A stretch of 23,530 bases of DNA from a virus (taxonomy: Duplodnaviria; Heunggongvirae; Uroviricota; Caudoviricetes). Under the pieces are notes generated by a model. That model searched no databases and was not told where the DNA came from. It saw nothing but the letters and a program-made list of their open reading frames with translations. The stretch lies in IMG/VR virus record IMGVR_UViG_2534681997_000007, positions 1 through 23,530 of that record. One strand, written 5' to 3'. Position 1 is the first letter of the stretch, and each line of letters opens with the position of its first letter. This document shows positions 2,957 through 10,476 of this stretch, piece by piece. Both the position numbers and the translations under genes were made by a program.

Positions 2957-3466
2957 ATGTTTGATTTTCAGGTTTCCAAACATCCCCACTATGACGAAGC
3001 ATGCCGCATTTTCGCACAGCGTCACAACATGGCGAAGCTGGCCGAGCGTGCAGGTATGAACGTTCAAACGTTACGTAACAAGCTCAACCCGGAACAGCCT
3101 CACCAGTTCACGCCGCATGAATTGTGGCTGCTGACTGACCTGACCGAAGACTCAACCCTCATTGATGGTTTTTTAGCGCAGATTCACTGCCTACCATGCG
3201 TGCCGGTTAATGAGTTGGCTAAAGACAAATTGCAGTCTTATGTCATGCGCGCAATGCGTGAACTCGGCGAACTGGCGAGCGGCGCGGTATCTGATGAACG
3301 TCTGACCACTGCCCGTAAGCACAACATGATTGAAAGCGTTAACTCCGGCATTCGCATGTTGTCATTGTCGGCTCTGGCGCTGCATGCACGTCTGCAGACT
3401 AATCCAGCTATGTCGAGCGTGATCGATACCATGAGCGGTATTGGCGCATCGTTTGGTCTGATTTGA
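2957..3466 (+). CDS. cII: CII-like lysogeny-establishment regulator (186 CII family)
   Basis: Start moved to ATG 2957 (MFDFQVSKHPHYDEAC...) with SD GAGGG 9 nt upstream; ORF-track start 2927 is TTG. Position immediately after apl. Confidence 0.7.
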   Translation: MFDFQVSKHPHYDEACRIFAQRHNMAKLAERAGMNVQTLRNKLNPEQPHQFTPHELWLLTDLTEDSTLIDGFLAQIHCLPCVPVNELAKDKLQSYVMRAMRELGELASGAVSDERLTTARKHNMIESVNSGIRMLSLSALALHARLQTNPAMSSVIDTMSGIGASFGLI

Positions 3467-4493: not shown

Positions 4494-6713
4494 TTGGCTG
4501 TTCAATTCGCTTATCCGTGGAACGTCCCACGGTCGGCAATCTCCAGCCCATACCTTACTTATGAGCAACAGCATCGTCGCGACCGTATGTTCGCGGCTTT
4601 GCTGCATGCAAAAAAGGTGCTTTCTCTCCAGCCCGACTGCGTACGGTTAGATGTTTATCGCACTGCTGCGGTGCTGGAGCAAAATCAGGGTAGTCAACGA
4701 GCCAATGCATTTTTAATCAGCTTCTGCAAAAAGGCATTGCCGCGTCTTGAACTGGTCGCAAAAAAATACGAATGCGCTGGTATCAACAGCAAGGTATCAA
4801 CCGCTGTTTTTGGAAGTCATTTTGATACTCAGCAAATGCAATATCTGTCGTCACGCATGGTTAATATGGTCGCCCAATATAACCGTCTCCCGGACATGTC
4901 GCGCGCTGATGTTGACCTGTTGGCCGCTGATATTGCTAATTTCATTCGTGGTGAACTTGCCAACATTAATGACCACGGATTCGGCGAGCTTAAAACGCTG
5001 TACACCTGGTATATTCGTGCTGGCTTTATTTCCCTCCAATTCAACGTTATCCCACCACATTGGGAGCGGGTTGAAAAAAAATATGTCGGTGCGGATGAAA
5101 TCGCACCGGCTATCGCCAAAATGTTTAACGATGGGTGGTGGCGCGGTCGTTTGCGCCGTGTTGCAGCTACGTGGCGCGAACACCTGCAAATTGCAGTCGG
5201 CAACGTCAGTAAGAAAAAAAACACTTACGCGAGTAAAAACTGCGTGACTGACTGGCGTGAACAAAAGCGCCGCACTCGTGAATTTCTCAAAGGTCTGGAT
5301 CTCGAAGACGAAGACGGCAACCGTATCAGCCTAATTGAAAAATATGATGGCTCAGTTGCTAACCCTGCGATTCGCCGCTGTGAGCTCATGACCCGCATTC
5401 GTGGGTTTGAAAACATCTGTAATGAGCTCGGTTATGTCGGTGAGTTTTACACTCTAACCGCGCCGTCAAAATATCACGCCACGACTAAAGCCGGTTACCG
5501 TAACAGCAAATGGAGCGGTGCCAGCCCGGCTGACACGCAAAACTATCTAACCGGTATCTGGGCGCGTATCCGTGCCAAACTACATCGGGAAGATGTCCGT
5601 ATTTTCGGTATTCGTGTCGCCGAGCCCCATCACGACGGCACTCCACACTGGCACATGCTGATGTTCATGCTGCCGGAAGATGTTGAATATGTTCGCTCCA
5701 TCGTCCGTAAATACGCATGGAAAGAAGACCGCCACGAACTGAAAAGCGATAAATCCAAAAAAGCACGTTTCCACGCCGAGTCCATTGACCCGGAGAAAGG
5801 CAGCGCAACCGGCTATGTTGCTAAATACATTTCAAAAAATATCGACGGTTATGCTCTCGATGGTGAAACCGATGATGAAAGCGGTGAGCTGCTGAAAGAG
5901 ACAGCCCCCGCCGTTTCAGCATGGGCTGCGCGCTGGCACATCCGTCAGTTTCAGTTTATTGGTGGTGCGCCGGTGACGGTTTACCGTGAGTTGCGTCGCC
6001 TCGCTGATACCGAAACCGCGCACGGTCTGAGCGTTGAGTTTGCCGCCGTCCATGATGCCGCCGACGCTGGTGACTGGGCTGGTTATGTTAATGCTCAAGG
6101 TGGGCCGTTTGTCCGTCGCGATGATTTACAGGTGCGCACACTGTATGAACCGCGTACCGAGCTTAATCAGTACGGTGAGGAAACGGTATGTATTAAGGGG
6201 GTCTACGATTCCTCCATAGGTGCAGGAAGCCCGATTTTAACCCGGCTCACTCAGTGGAAGATTGTTCCGAAGCGTGCTGTTGATTTGGCCGTTGACCTTC
6301 AGGACGGCAAAGCCGTCCCTCGGAGTTCTGTCAATAACTGTACGGGAAGCGAAAGCGATCCACCGGAACTCGATTTATCAAAACCCCTGAGTCGACGTGA
6401 AAGACGAGAGCTGACAAACCGACTCAGGAAGCAAAAGCCAGCAATACGGCGAAAATTCATCCACGGAACGGATGAGCAAAACGCAGCTATAGCTAAAACT
6501 ATCGACGAGATACAACTTACAACTGGCATCACAATCAGCCGGGGCGAAGCCCTGCACCTGATGGCCGGTGGTAAAAGTTGTTTTGATGACAAATGGCTAC
6601 GCGGAACATCAATGGGTGAAATATTTTCCGCTGCGCCATCACATCAGGCTAAAGCCAAGAAAATCCTTAATCGCGTTGCTGCGATGGCTGAAGCAGCAAA
6701 AACCAATACCTGA
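4494..6713 (+). CDS. A: Rolling-circle replication initiator endonuclease gpA (P2 A / 186 RepA family)
   Basis: 739-aa ORF; HUH-type motif PHHDGTPHWHMLMF and catalytic tyrosine motif TGYVAKYISKNIDGYA; ORF-track start 4494 is TTG one base after the upstream stop, first in-frame ATG is 4587, so the start is uncertain. Confidence 0.9.
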   Translation: MAVQFAYPWNVPRSAISSPYLTYEQQHRRDRMFAALLHAKKVLSLQPDCVRLDVYRTAAVLEQNQGSQRANAFLISFCKKALPRLELVAKKYECAGINSKVSTAVFGSHFDTQQMQYLSSRMVNMVAQYNRLPDMSRADVDLLAADIANFIRGELANINDHGFGELKTLYTWYIRAGFISLQFNVIPPHWERVEKKYVGADEIAPAIAKMFNDGWWRGRLRRVAATWREHLQIAVGNVSKKKNTYASKNCVTDWREQKRRTREFLKGLDLEDEDGNRISLIEKYDGSVANPAIRRCELMTRIRGFENICNELGYVGEFYTLTAPSKYHATTKAGYRNSKWSGASPADTQNYLTGIWARIRAKLHREDVRIFGIRVAEPHHDGTPHWHMLMFMLPEDVEYVRSIVRKYAWKEDRHELKSDKSKKARFHAESIDPEKGSATGYVAKYISKNIDGYALDGETDDESGELLKETAPAVSAWAARWHIRQFQFIGGAPVTVYRELRRLADTETAHGLSVEFAAVHDAADAGDWAGYVNAQGGPFVRRDDLQVRTLYEPRTELNQYGEETVCIKGVYDSSIGAGSPILTRLTQWKIVPKRAVDLAVDLQDGKAVPRSSVNNCTGSESDPPELDLSKPLSRRERRELTNRLRKQKPAIRRKFIHGTDEQNAAIAKTIDEIQLTTGITISRGEALHLMAGGKSCFDDKWLRGTSMGEIFSAAPSHQAKAKKILNRVAAMAEAAKTNT

Positions 6714-6790: not shown

Positions 6791-6810
6791 TACTGTATAA
6801 ATATACAGTA
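6791..6810. promoter_or_regulatory. LexA box (SOS operator) TACTGTATAAATATACAGTA
   Basis: Perfect CTGT-N8-ACAG core with AT-rich spacer, one mismatch to the 20-bp consensus; 21 bp upstream of the 6831 ATG; a possible -35 TTGCCA lies at 6777-6782. Confidence 0.7.
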
Positions 6811-6830
6811 CACCCTATGGGAGGGATTTC

Positions 6831-7013
6831 ATGGTTGGCGAACATTTCAGCCGAACGCAGCAAAAGTGGGCTTGTGTGCAATTTATTGCCGAGGTATCTC
6901 TGATTGCAAACTGCAAACCAGCAGACTTAAAGCTCGCACTCACTCTCATTGCTGACCTTGCAAACAGCGAAAATAACGAAACAGAAGAAAAAATTTTTTA
7001 TAAGGTTGAATAG
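6831..7013 (+). CDS. Small ORF under the LexA box; candidate SOS-induced protein at the position where phage 186 encodes its antirepressor Tum
   Basis: 60 aa; SD GGGAGGG 7 nt upstream of ATG; no recognisable domain; much shorter than 186 Tum as I recall it. Confidence 0.4.
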   Translation: MVGEHFSRTQQKWACVQFIAEVSLIANCKPADLKLALTLIADLANSENNETEEKIFYKVE

Positions 7014-7195
7014 AAGCATGATTGAACGACTCTCTTTGCAGGTTTTTTGACAGAAGTTAATAGCTTTTTCGTTAACCAAAGAAAAGACTGATAGTACAAA
7101 CGACTAGTAGAATCATCACCATGGCAAAAAGATAGTTTATTTAACTGAAATCACTGGATTTTGATGAAGAAATAGACAGTTTTACATAATGTTTG

Positions 7196-7224
7196 TTGAT
7201 TCACCGAAGACACGAACCTATAAT
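7196..7224 (+). promoter_or_regulatory. Sigma70-type promoter TTGATT-17 bp-TATAAT upstream of the Panacea-domain gene
   Basis: Consensus -10 at 7219-7224, -35 at 7196-7201, 17-bp spacer; ~150 bp upstream of the 7373 ATG. Confidence 0.5.
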
Positions 7225-7308
7225 TCGCGCGCTACCATGCTTATCGTCATTGCTATTTACTGTTATTTGTAAGTATTGACGCTACTAGAGTAGTCAGTTA
7301 GTCTCAAA

Positions 7309-7328
7309 GTAGATGGTTATCCATCTAC
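7309..7328. promoter_or_regulatory. Perfect palindrome GTAGATGG-TTAT-CCATCTAC between promoter and Panacea gene; candidate operator or 5' UTR hairpin
   Basis: 8-bp arms with 4-bp spacer read directly. Confidence 0.4.
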
Positions 7329-7372
7329 ATAAGATGCATCGCTTTTATGCGAGGTTCATCTAAGGAGGTTTT

Positions 7373-7843
7373 ATGTACAACCCGATTTGCATCGTGAACG
7401 AATTTATCGAACGCGCTAAAAAAAACGGGGACAACCTCACCCACATGCAGGCTCAAAAGCTTCTTTATGTTGCTCATGGTTACAGCCTAGCTTTTCTTAA
7501 CGAGCCTTTGCTTGAAGAACCAGTGTGTGCGTGGAGGTACGGTCCGGTAATTCCATCGGTCTACTATGCGCTGCGCCATAATCGTTCAAACCCGATATCA
7601 GAAAAAGCATCATCAACATCGGTAGTACCGGAAAAGATAGACAGTAAAACTGCATCACTTCTGGACATGATTTACGAAACATACGGGAAGCTTTCCGGTG
7701 TTCTCTTATCTGAATTTACTCATCGCCCAGGTACTCCATGGTCACAGGCGATAGAAAAACGAGAAAACATCATCAGTGATGCCAGTATCAAAGACTATTA
7801 TTTGCGTCTAGCAAGACGAGATCCAGTTTGCAACGGATTGTAA
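7373..7843 (+). CDS. Panacea-domain (DUF4065, GepA/SocA-like) protein; candidate antitoxin or immunity component
   Basis: 156 aa; strong SD AAGGAGG 5 nt upstream; motif MQAQKLLYVAHGYSLAFLNEPLLEEPVCAWRYGPVIPSVYYAL matches the DUF4065 core as I recall it. Confidence 0.75.
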   Translation: MYNPICIVNEFIERAKKNGDNLTHMQAQKLLYVAHGYSLAFLNEPLLEEPVCAWRYGPVIPSVYYALRHNRSNPISEKASSTSVVPEKIDSKTASLLDMIYETYGKLSGVLLSEFTHRPGTPWSQAIEKRENIISDASIKDYYLRLARRDPVCNGL

Positions 7844-7860
7844 AATCAGATTATTATTGA

Positions 7861-7885
7861 CCCCGCTTAAACTGCGGGGTTTTTT
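7861..7885 (+). terminator. Intrinsic-terminator-like hairpin CCCCGC-TTAAACT-GCGGGG followed by TTTTTT, ending immediately at the start codon of the next gene
   Basis: 6-bp GC stem, 7-nt loop, 6 T; the only purine-rich SD-like element for the downstream ATG (GGGG, 7876-7879) is inside the 3' arm. Confidence 0.5.
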
Positions 7886-8482
7886 ATGTCGTCCGATAAT
7901 GAAACAATCAAAAATCTGATGAAAGAGGCTATACAGAGTCATGTTACTGATCTCTTCAAATCTCTTGATGTAGGCCCTAAACCAAAGCCGACAGAAAGAT
8001 CCTCTCCCGCCAATGATGACCCCGAAGCAAACCTTTCTGCTGAAGACAAAGCCAAAAAAGAAGAACAGGCTTTTGATTCGCCTACTGATGATGAGCACGA
8101 AGAGTTGCAAGGTCTTGCATACTGGAGTCTGGAGCACAGGCGTCGGATAGACTCTCTTACAATTCAAAAAACACAAGAAGAAATTGTACGTATCTCTTGT
8201 GAAAACGACGACCTTAGGGCTAAAACAAAGAACAACCATGCAGTTGCCCGTGGCCGTCAAATAGACAACAGACTGCGTTTACAATTAGCTGCTGCAACCT
8301 TTAAGTTCATGCAGTATTGGTGTGGTTTTGTCGCTTTCATTGTTGCTTGGTATGTATTCGCCCACTATGGCAAACCTGAAAAAGAAGTCATCATTGCACT
8401 ACTCGGAACCAGCACAATAAGTATTATTGGTTTAGTTGGTTTTGTAGTTAGCGGTTTATTTAAATCAAAAAAAGATGAATAG
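7886..8482 (+). CDS. Small membrane protein with acidic N-terminal region and two C-terminal transmembrane helices; candidate toxin/abortive-infection effector
   Basis: 198 aa; hydrophobic segments FKFMQYWCGFVAFIVAWYVFAHY and VIIALLGTSTISIIGLVGFVVSGLF; N-terminal ~130 aa rich in D/E/K; AT-rich. Confidence 0.65.
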   Translation: MSSDNETIKNLMKEAIQSHVTDLFKSLDVGPKPKPTERSSPANDDPEANLSAEDKAKKEEQAFDSPTDDEHEELQGLAYWSLEHRRRIDSLTIQKTQEEIVRISCENDDLRAKTKNNHAVARGRQIDNRLRLQLAAATFKFMQYWCGFVAFIVAWYVFAHYGKPEKEVIIALLGTSTISIIGLVGFVVSGLFKSKKDE

Positions 8483-8532
8483 CACAGCATACCTAAAACA
8501 GGCTAACCCCACTGAAGAAAAACTATTTTTTT

Positions 8533-8574
8533 GTGCCAGCAGAGTTGAACAACTCGCACCACGGGGCGTTAGTT
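8533..8574 (+). repeat. Left copy of an imperfect ~42-bp direct repeat (core GTTGAACAAC...GGCGTTAGT)
   Basis: 31 of 42 positions identical to 8938-8979, including exact 10-mer and 9-mer blocks in the same register. Confidence 0.35.
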
Positions 8575-8696
8575 CTGCCTTTCAAAGTTTCTCGATGTGT
8601 TATTGATTACACACCCGTGATGAATGGGACGTTACCTTGGCGGGTTTTATAGTGGCGCTTTGGCAGCACTAAATAAAATTCATTGAAGGCGATAAT

Positions 8697-8906
8697 ATGC
8701 ATCGACTACCGGGCGAGATTCCGCAGCACAAAACTAAAAGCATACAACTTATGGCTATCGTTCATCGTCTGCAGACGATAATGGTCAATGAGAACCTGAC
8801 TCCAGCAGAGCTAGTCGGGTGTGCAGAAATAGTCAGGGATAATTACGGCAAGCTGGATAATATCAGCAGACCGACACAATACTCACCTCCACCACGTCGG
8901 CGATAG
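8697..8906 (+). CDS. Small hypothetical ORF between the repeat copies
   Basis: 69 aa; ATG with weak SD GAAGG; no recognisable domain. Confidence 0.3.
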   Translation: MHRLPGEIPQHKTKSIQLMAIVHRLQTIMVNENLTPAELVGCAEIVRDNYGKLDNISRPTQYSPPPRRR

Positions 8907-8942: not shown

Positions 8943-8979
8943 GGCGGGGTTGAACAACGAGCTACGCGAGGCGTTAGTC
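8938..8979 (+). repeat. Right copy of the imperfect ~42-bp direct repeat; overlaps the stop codon of the HNH gene
   Basis: See left copy at 8533-8574. Confidence 0.35.
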
Positions 8980-9852
8980 GAATTTTACAGGCGACAATGG
9001 TTGTTTTAATTCTTTATCGTGGAAATGTTTGTAGCGTGGATCCTTACGAGCCTCATCGGAAAATACCGATCGATTATCTTCTATCCTAAGATGGCCCGAG
9101 TCTAATAAACGATGTAGGTCTGAAGCAAGTGCAATACCGTTTTCAACACTTGGCGCTCCGCCTGCCGCGTGGCTTAAAATGTGACACGCATCAATCGCAA
9201 AGCGAGAGCCCGTAATTGCGCAACATCCCCTCCAATTGGCTAATACGTCCTTTCTGAACCGGCCTTGAGCTTTTCGTATTTTTGTCAGCGAATAACCATC
9301 TTCAACATATGAACGCTGCTCGAATGTAGGTGATGGTTCGGTTATCTGGGGTAATTGTTGCAAACCATTCTGGTTAACCTTAAATTCTTCCCAAAGATGC
9401 TTACTAACTATTTTACCTTGGCGAGCGCACCAGTTGGTAAAATCTCTCTTTTCGTATTCATCTAAAGACGCCAGCCATTCGCGTAATTCAGAAGTGGCTA
9501 AAACATTTTGATGTAATTGACGATTTTGTGGCAGTGGTGCCAACCTCTCTTTTTTCTCGCCTCGCCGGTAAGGGGGAAGTTTCAATGTGTCCTTCATTGA
9601 AATCGTGCCAGCTGCGTTGGTTCGGACGCTGAATTGACCAGCATACTCAACTTTTTTAGCAGTTGTGGGAGTTGTTGGCTTTCTGTTATTAGCCATCCAA
9701 CGCTGTACTTGGTGCAAGACTTCACTAGCTTCCAGCCCCTTACTTATCAATTCTTTGACATATTTTTTAACCTCTTGTTTATTTGGTTGGTATTCGAATA
9801 AATACGGTGAAAGCTTTAAAATTTCTTTCATTGAAGTTTTTGTTTCAGCCAT
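8974..9852 (-). CDS. HNH-endonuclease-domain protein with ~200-aa N-terminal domain of unknown function; candidate defence nuclease
   Basis: Start at the Met of MAETKT (9852) preceded by GGGGGGA; C-terminal motif CCAITGSRFAIDACHILSHAAGGAPSVENGIALASDLHRLLDSGHLRIED, HNH_2-like as recalled; AT-rich. Confidence 0.75.
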   Translation of the reverse strand: MAETKTSMKEILKLSPYLFEYQPNKQEVKKYVKELISKGLEASEVLHQVQRWMANNRKPTTPTTAKKVEYAGQFSVRTNAAGTISMKDTLKLPPYRRGEKKERLAPLPQNRQLHQNVLATSELREWLASLDEYEKRDFTNWCARQGKIVSKHLWEEFKVNQNGLQQLPQITEPSPTFEQRSYVEDGYSLTKIRKAQGRFRKDVLANWRGCCAITGSRFAIDACHILSHAAGGAPSVENGIALASDLHRLLDSGHLRIEDNRSVFSDEARKDPRYKHFHDKELKQPLSPVKFD

Positions 9853-10028
9853 AAATCCCCCCATTTTAATTTTCTAAAAATGCACTTAATGTCATTTTTC
9901 TCAGCGTGCATTCATGGTGCATGGTTTTGCATGCGAATAATGTCTCATTTTTATGGGTGCGCCACCAGTGCTGGCGCGGATCCAGAGTAATCATGCAACT
10001 GCATTAAAACCGCCCCATAAAGCGGGCA

Positions 10029-10158: not shown

Positions 10159-10251
10159 TAAAGGATGGGATCAGTTGCACAATTTTACGGTTTCGCTTTG
10201 GCTAATATCCATATTGAGACTTTATGTTCCCCACAACAGTTGGAGGCTTTA

Positions 10252-10476
10252 ATGGATAACTATCATATTACAAAAGATGGCGATAAGTGGAAGTTGCAAA
10301 AAGAGGGCAATGATCGCCCTAGCAAGACCGCGACCACAAAGGCCGAGCTGATTAAAACAACATCTGAGTTTATGTCGAACAAAACAGGCTCGGTCAAAAT
10401 TCACAAGGAAGATGGGAAAATTCAGGAAGAACGCACTTATCAGAGAAAAGATGATCCTAAAAAGTCTAAAGGCTAA
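10252..10476 (+). CDS. Small basic protein, DUF2188-like, between cos and the portal gene
   Basis: Start at ATG 10252 (MDNYHITKDGDKWKLQKEGNDRPSK...) with SD GGAGG 5 nt upstream; ORF-track start 10165 lacks an SD. Confidence 0.55.
   Translation: MDNYHITKDGDKWKLQKEGNDRPSKTATTKAELIKTTSEFMSNKTGSVKIHKEDGKIQEERTYQRKDDPKKSKG

Follow-up and report, generated by a model that had tools for sequence, protein, structure and literature searches.

A conserved RNA hairpin and a promoter-like element between the panA and panT genes of a P2/186-like prophage

The question raised by this locus is how a toxin gene is expressed when a stable hairpin abuts its start codon. The original prediction, made on the window (the whole 23,530-nt stretch of viral DNA analysed here), placed a terminator-like hairpin between a Panacea gene and a gene for a putative membrane toxin. 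The downstream gene was proposed to be held at low expression relative to the upstream one, either by termination or by burial of its only Shine-Dalgarno (SD)-like purines.

The gene pair and its prophage setting

The two genes concerned are the following.

7373 to 7843, plus strand: panA, Panacea-domain antitoxin of 156 aa, without HTH extension
7886 to 8482, plus strand: panT, 198 aa, N-terminal region charged, C-terminal membrane segment highly conserved

The upstream reading frame encodes a Panacea/DUF4065 protein (Pfam PF13274, E 1.3e-18) which is 43% identical over its full length (E 9e-46) to WP_000287252.1, the product of the homologous upstream gene in E. coli APEC O78. Kurata et al. 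2022 (PMC8832971) validated a PanA/PanT pair whose antitoxin has this very accession. The window PanT displays the same level of identity (43%, E 2e-38) with the product of the gene located 3' of the validated E. coli PanA. Hydropathy and alignment delimit in PanT a strongly hydrophobic segment at about residues 166-192, nearly invariant among homologs and directly preceded on its N-terminal side by an aromatic-rich conserved stretch (about residues 138-160). The E. coli PanT depolarises and permeabilises the membrane and is described as pore-forming, and both toxicity and neutralisation by PanA are known for these 43%-identical homologs (PMC8832971). Since the pair is homologous to the experimentally tested PanAT, the two genes of the window are, by homology, a PanA/PanT toxin-antitoxin pair, and the arrangement put forward in the original prediction is thereby supported. 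In PanAT systems the partner is a conserved neighbouring gene less than 100 nt away in at least two species; here the pairing is kept in all informative loci, across many genera. A DNA-binding domain is carried by some PanAs only (PMC8832971), and a Pfam search detected no HTH or other recognisable DNA-binding domain in the PanA of the window. PADLOC contains no model for PanA or PanT, and its CARF match (E 0.0027) was judged spurious. The minus-strand reading frame at 7808-8260 was likewise taken as spurious. An alternative panT start at the in-frame ATG 7919 was discarded, as it is devoid of an SD while the ATG at 7886 and the codon following it are conserved.

The window is a P2/186-like prophage in which gpA occupies 4494-6713 (Pfam Phage_GPA) and the portal and terminase genes lie on the minus strand from 10515. 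Similarity to the PSP3-like backbone extends up to 7014, the end of a 60-aa tumA-like reading frame, and resumes at about 8520; the region of about 7015-8520 is therefore an inserted cassette of about 1.5 kb in the gpA-portal hotspot. This hotspot is known to collect anti-phage genes (PMC9122126). A megablast of 7100-8700 against complete E. coli genomes returned no match, and the phage GenBank records matched the flanking backbone alone and not the cassette. Other cargo of the hotspot includes an HNH_2 endonuclease-domain protein of 296 aa (8974-9864, minus strand) and a DUF2188 protein (10165-10476, plus strand) matching the PADLOC candidate system PDC-S16 (E 1e-14). A LexA-box-like palindrome, tACTGTATAAATATACAGt, is found at 6793-6811, just 5' of the 60-aa reading frame (6831-7013). 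This frame is a match to the tumA gene of PSP3, which carries elsewhere the annotation 'UV induction of prophage'. Because of this palindrome and of the tumA match, the prophage looks 186/PSP3-like and SOS-inducible, with the LexA-box/tum unit directed straight toward the PanAT cassette.

The PanAT module is also encountered outside P2 hotspots, in Providencia (loci L083/L084), Vibrio (L085/L086) and E. coli APEC O78 (L088). One of these sites follows a lambdoid antiterminator gene beside a type I restriction-modification system, the Vibrio site is an island between serine recombinases, and another lies at a prophage end beside a truncated tRNA-dihydrouridine synthase gene. Since its sites are of several kinds, the module behaves as a mobile cassette. 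Four Logan contigs (L090-L093, 1.6-1.8 kb) are independent short assemblies whose ends roughly coincide with the limits of the cassette. Assembly graphs may break at these points because the cassette is flanked by conserved phage backbone in mixed populations. The possibility that these contigs are transcript assemblies revealing 5' and 3' ends was rejected, as they merely span the cassette.

A hairpin conserved by compensatory change

The intergenic features are the following.

7859 to 7881, plus strand: RNA hairpin, with 5' arm GACCCCGC (anti-SD-like), loop TTAAACT and 3' arm GCGGGGTT carrying the SD-like GGGGU at 7876-7880
7880 to 7885, plus strand: T6 run, serving both as U-tract of the intrinsic-terminator-like site and as SD-AUG spacer

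The hairpin originally described is present as such (CCCCGC 7861-7866, TTAAACT 7867-7873, GCGGGG 7874-7879, T6 7880-7885, ATG 7886-7888), and its stem is lengthened by the A7860-T7880 and G7859-T7881 pairs to a total of eight pairs, six of them G-C, around a 7-nt loop. It does not, as had been stated, constitute the only spacer between the two genes: the spacer measures 42 nt (7844-7885), and the 17 nt preceding the stem, AATCAGATTATTATTGA, include a -10-like TATTAT at 7852-7857. The fold of 7858-7888 reaches -15.3 kcal/mol, compared with -4.6 +/- 2.0 for shuffled sequences (z -5.3, none of 200 as good). The GC-rich stem followed by a U-rich tract has the anatomy of an intrinsic terminator, and the stem stands clear of a ribosome terminating on panA, the stop codon being located 16 nt upstream. 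This same distance led to the rejection of translational coupling, in which the terminating ribosome would melt the stem. A terminator acting on the minus strand was also discarded: no T-run follows the stem in that direction and the scan revealed no minus-strand promoter there. The Rfam search produced only a sub-threshold match to Trp_leader RF00513 (25.1 bits for a gathering score of 41, E 0.03). The likeness to an attenuator terminator lies in the GC stem followed by a U-run, and membership of the family was rejected given the score and the absence of a leader peptide. In the Vibrio locus L085 a separate terminator-like hairpin is located 3' of panT (3132-3150); in the window, the stretch from the end of panT (8482) to the point where the backbone resumes (about 8520) yielded no comparable plus-strand terminator.

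A hairpin of this kind could arise by chance and have no function, the region being rich in terminator-like matches (17 found, 9.8 expected). The present one is nevertheless the top terminator-like site of the scan between 4000 and 12000, and its exact pattern occurs once in the window for 0.02 copies expected by chance; being a single copy, it was also not retained as a repeated element. The PanT family comprises 76 homolog clusters, in Enterobacterales and Vibrio. About 90 loci were collected from viral and metagenome scans and exact-protein look-ups, the genome-contig scan giving 4 of them. Apart from the uninformative matches (L011, L058, L067/L068), panT is always found directly 3' of a Panacea gene ending with C-x-G-L-stop (A-N-G-L in Vibrio). 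Two types of spacer were distinguished. Type 1 spacers (26 distinct sequences) are 40-47 nt long, or 60 nt in Vibrio, and display a hairpin and a T-run abutting the start codon. Carriers of such hairpin-type cassettes include E. coli 8.0566, Enterobacter hormaechei and Serratia marcescens. Type 2 spacers, present in E. coli, Klebsiella, Salmonella and Providencia and including the validated pair, are 18-25 nt long, with no hairpin and an exposed weak SD. In the PanA tree the type 2 loci form a single clade whose neighbour is the type 1 Vibrio. The hairpin is therefore probably ancestral and lost once.

Among 24 distinct type 1 sequences, 96.8% of the cells of the stem alignment are paired, and compensatory double changes (for example C-G to U-A, G-C to A-U and U-A to C-G) affect seven of the nine pairs. 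One natural version of the stem reads CCTCGC/GCGAGG. None of 500 shuffles performed as well, and sliding of the partner strand reduced pairing to 28-55%. RNAalifold, applied to a wider stretch of 96 nt, predicts the helix of the terminator-like hairpin and no other. In Vibrio, a stem of unrelated sequence (CCCTTCC.../...GGAAGGG) occupies the same position. A functionless chance hairpin is effectively refuted by this covariation, which extends across relatives whose proteins are only about 40-45% identical.

The half-sites of a palindrome can also co-vary with the specificity of a protein. The inverted repeat, at about -6 to +17 of the promoter-like element P3 described in the next section, could be the operator of a dimeric repressor, possibly the toxin-antitoxin complex; it covers the start site, as operators classically do. 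The distance between the half-sites is however variable (loops of 3-7 nt, stems of 8-13 pairs), and the outer pair is a G-U wobble in eight sequences, which corresponds to an A-C mismatch on the other strand. In addition, a T-run follows the repeat on its 3' side and the PanA of the window has no recognisable DNA-binding domain. An operator is consequently regarded as highly improbable. The variable loop and the G-U outer pair favour plus-strand RNA over a protein-binding DNA palindrome, and the comparative evidence indicates that the hairpin is under selection as a plus-strand RNA structure.

Conservation extends to the SD. The GGGG of the 3' arm had been singled out as the only SD-like stretch ahead of the panT ATG, and both the sequence and the scoring of SD hybrids agree with this. 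The 3' arm is SD-like in 26/26 relatives (GGGGU, GGGA, GAGG or GGAAGGG) and ends 4-9 nt 5' of the start codon, and a C-run forms the 5' arm in all type 1 loci. In the window and in all 26 relatives, the only SD is thus located inside a stable stem and at a functional distance from the start, as expected of an SD-sequestering structure. The predicted hybrid of the panT SD with the 16S 3' end amounts to -5.7 kcal/mol in the window, with a family mean of about -5.3. For panA, a canonical SD was identified.

7362 to 7368, plus strand: Shine-Dalgarno AAGGAGG of panA

In the window its hybrid reaches -12.7 kcal/mol, for a mean of -11.4 among 19 scored loci, and a strong panA SD is found in the examined loci with a clear panA start. 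At least five T are present in the 8 nt 3' of the stem in 24 of the 26 distinct relatives, the exceptions being Erwinia (L009) and Pantoea (L013/L079). The Pantoea loci retain an 11-pair stem with GAGG and the promoter in the absence of a T-run, so that termination cannot be the sole selected function.

These data also bear on an explanation in which the hairpin only marks a transcript boundary: it would be the terminator of panA, panT would be transcribed separately, and the SD-like arm would reflect GC-richness with no translational role. The strong terminator anatomy and the conserved promoter-like element agree with it. It does not account for the constant order of C-run (5') and G-run (3'), which the unrelated Vibrio stem obeys as well, for the stem-start distance held at 4-9 nt with no separate SD, or for the stem kept with its GAGG in Pantoea when the T-run is lost. 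A mere boundary is, on balance, quite unlikely.

Promoter-like elements upstream of panA and within its end

Three promoter-like elements were retained around the pair.

7196 to 7224, plus strand: P1, promoter-like, panA, TTGATT-17-TATAAT followed by the invariant GC-rich TCGCGCGC, scan score 10/12
7276 to 7304, plus strand: P2, promoter-like, panA, TTGACG-17-TAGTCT
7828 to 7857, plus strand: P3, promoter-like, -35 TTGCAA at 7828-7833 (last panA codons), 18-nt spacer, -10 TATTAT at 7852-7857

P1 with its TCGCGCGC spans 7196-7232 and keeps its position in diverged loci, the proteins of which share no more than about 40-45% identity. The GC-rich stretch resembles a stringent-type discriminator. 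P2 is family-wide in the upstream alignment (TTGACG, 17-nt spacer, TAGnnT or TACnnT), and the distance between P1 and P2 varies among loci from about 0 to 60 nt. A further hairpin is present in the panA leader at 7309-7328 (GTAGATGG-TTAT-CCATCTAC), with apparent compensatory changes in close relatives (GTAGACGA..TCGTCTAC in L003, GGCGA..TCGCC in L078).

P3 consists of two sigma-70-like hexamers separated by a spacer within 17 +/- 1 nt and scores 9/12 in the scan. Taken alone this score is unremarkable, sites of such quality showing no enrichment in the window (5 found, 9.1 expected); its significance stems from family-wide conservation. All 25 distinct enteric type 1 sequences display TTGC(A/C)(A/T), a spacer of 17-18 nt and TAnnAT, with TTGC and TA..AT invariant in the midst of variable adjoining non-coding columns. 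The end of the -10 box is separated from the stem by 0-1 nt in every hairpin locus (1 nt in the window). The -35 overlaps the conserved C-x-G-L codons and its conservation is partly due to coding. The synonymous positions are fixed as well: the codon preceding the C-terminal Cys of PanA has T as third base in 22/22 genes, for seven different amino acids (background of T at third positions 0.33-0.58), and the Cys codon itself is TGC in 22/22 genes, compared with 14 TGC for 21 TGT (40%) at other Cys positions. The constraint on the -35 therefore exceeds that of coding. Most relatives have TTGCAT, which matches the consensus at three of six positions, and the scan flags only the subgroup of the window and Vibrio. 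In Vibrio the promoter-like element, TTGTAA-18-TATAAT, scores 10/12 and lies at the same place relative to the stem; the intergenic spacer is longer there, the -35 is shifted onto the Leu-stop codons and the perfect TATAAT -10 abuts the stem. In type 2 loci the Cys codon is TGT and TTGC is absent, so that this clade is devoid of both hairpin and promoter element; as these loci form one clade, the co-occurrence of the two features counts as roughly one evolutionary event.

From the geometry of the -10 box, the start site of P3 is predicted at C7864/G7865, 7-8 nt after the -10, within the 5' arm of the hairpin and on a conserved pyrimidine-purine step. In 26/26 loci the same geometry would leave 1-5 nt of the 5' arm in the predicted P3 RNA. 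The leader from the predicted start is unstructured (-3.7 kcal/mol, z +0.5). With this conserved promoter-like element placed immediately ahead of the stem, the hairpin is likely confined to RNA arriving from upstream, and panT is likely not simply an attenuated second cistron.

The main competitor, which is also the scheme of the original prediction, is a plain operon attenuator, in which panA and panT form one unit with a leaky terminator and/or an SD clamp and no working internal promoter. The conserved hairpin, T-run and SD within the stem are all accommodated by this scheme, the 42-nt gap is typical of toxin-antitoxin operons, the validated homologs form a plain unit of two genes and the -35 boxes are mostly weak. 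Left unexplained are the invariant TA..AT at the stem, its fixed distance of 17-18 nt to TTGC, the synonymous constraint and the near-consensus Vibrio promoter at the same place. A stem of -15 kcal/mol over an SD of -5.7 kcal/mol is moreover expected to leave translation near-silent (de Smit and van Duin), and read-through RNA would then yield almost no toxin. The attenuator is thus considered possible but doubtful. As for the proposal of a toxin expressed at a lower level than its antitoxin, it fits the conserved hairpin and T-run and the weak panT SD; what it had overlooked is the conserved promoter-like element.

A proposed insulation of the toxin gene and its known relatives

The reading preferred here is that the hairpin insulates panT from upstream transcription and that panT has a weak promoter of its own; a probability of about 0.45, somewhat short of even odds, is attributed to this full model. 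From the features described above, we infer termination and SD masking by the hairpin and an internal start site at P3. The proposed mechanism can be briefly summarized as follows. RNA initiated at P1, P2 or further upstream, for example at the LexA-box/tum unit, would form the full stem, which together with the U-run would act as an intrinsic terminator and end the panA message at about 7885. In RNA reading through this site, the weak SD of panT (GGGGU) would be paired with the anti-SD-like C-run and the toxin would remain untranslated. Expression of panT would instead rely on a weak sigma-70 promoter embedded in the 3' end of panA, with a start at about C7864/G7865. The resulting mRNA, deprived of the 5' arm, would form no hairpin, would escape termination and would leave the SD accessible at 6 nt from the AUG. 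Two better promoter-like elements and a canonical SD would serve the antitoxin and the toxin would depend on a weak promoter and a weak SD, so that the antitoxin would be kept in excess and panT would be insulated from position effects.

A stronger version would have a single stem of about 20 nt serve at once as terminator, anti-SD clamp and GC-rich discriminator/start region, making the toxin transcriptionally autonomous from its antitoxin; this is considered unlikely. GC-rich discriminators are seen at both P1 (TATAAT-TCGCGCGC) and the toxin promoter (TAnnAT-GACCCCG), and the antitoxin:toxin ratio could therefore respond to ppGpp, to supercoiling or to takeover of transcription by a phage. 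In the same version, the insulator could also spare the prophage an activation of the toxin by SOS-driven read-through from the adjacent tum gene at the time of its induction.

Among known systems, insertion sequences offer the closest functional analogues, a dangerous gene being shielded there from impinging transcription. In IS10 and IS50, fold-back inhibition reportedly operates through read-through RNA that hides the ribosome-binding site in a stem, the native transcript being devoid of the 5' arm (Davis, Simons and Kleckner 1985). The left end of IS200 carries a rho-independent terminator that halts transcription entering from outside, a stem that sequesters the SD, and a weak native promoter whose start site lies just past the terminator (PMC4513863). 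The window differs from these elements in that one hairpin appears to do both jobs, that it would shield the toxin gene of a toxin-antitoxin pair, that transcription of the cognate antitoxin counts among the 'outside' sources, and that no antisense RNA is evident. To our knowledge, this insulator logic is known from insertion sequences and not from type II toxin-antitoxin pairs. Membrane toxins of type I systems (hok, tisB and others) are encoded by mRNAs in which the SD is locked in a stable local structure of the primary long RNA. No RNA antitoxin is found in the window, unlike in these systems, and release would rely on an alternative start site and not on processing.

In type II systems, ratios set by internal promoters, truncated transcripts or differences in translation rate are described (PMC5535158, PMC8708949), with RnlAB (internal promoter) and axe-txe as examples and internal terminators hypothesised for DinJ-YafQ and YafNO. 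The internal promoter of RnlAB feeds the antitoxin, whereas P3 would feed the toxin; the class-3 terminators of DinJ-YafQ and YafNO are hypothetical, and none of these systems combines promoter, terminator and SD clamp within about 60 nt. No description of such a combined element was found. The element amounts to a regulatory variation on components known before, within an already known toxin-antitoxin family.

PanAT modules, at once toxin-antitoxin and candidate defence cassettes, are widespread and hyperpromiscuous. The PanA of the window has no recognisable DNA-binding domain, and the data suggest a compact, portable means of balancing expression at the RNA/DNA level: the toxin gene would be walled off from any promoter behind which the cassette lands and would carry its own weak expression signals. 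Insulation of this kind could explain the safe travel of lethal pore-forming toxins between phage hotspots.

In the PanAT of E. coli STEC O31 (PMC8832971), as in the window, the Panacea antitoxin comes first and is followed by a toxin whose N-terminal part is charged and whose membrane segments are C-terminal. Its spacer differs: it measures 22 nt, leaves an AGGGA exposed and is devoid of the hairpin, the T-run and the TTGC/-10 element. The word 'terminator' is absent from the main text of that paper. As the validated E. coli pair works with this plain 22-nt spacer, the hairpin element is dispensable for toxin-antitoxin function, and the hairpin-less pair provides a natural control.
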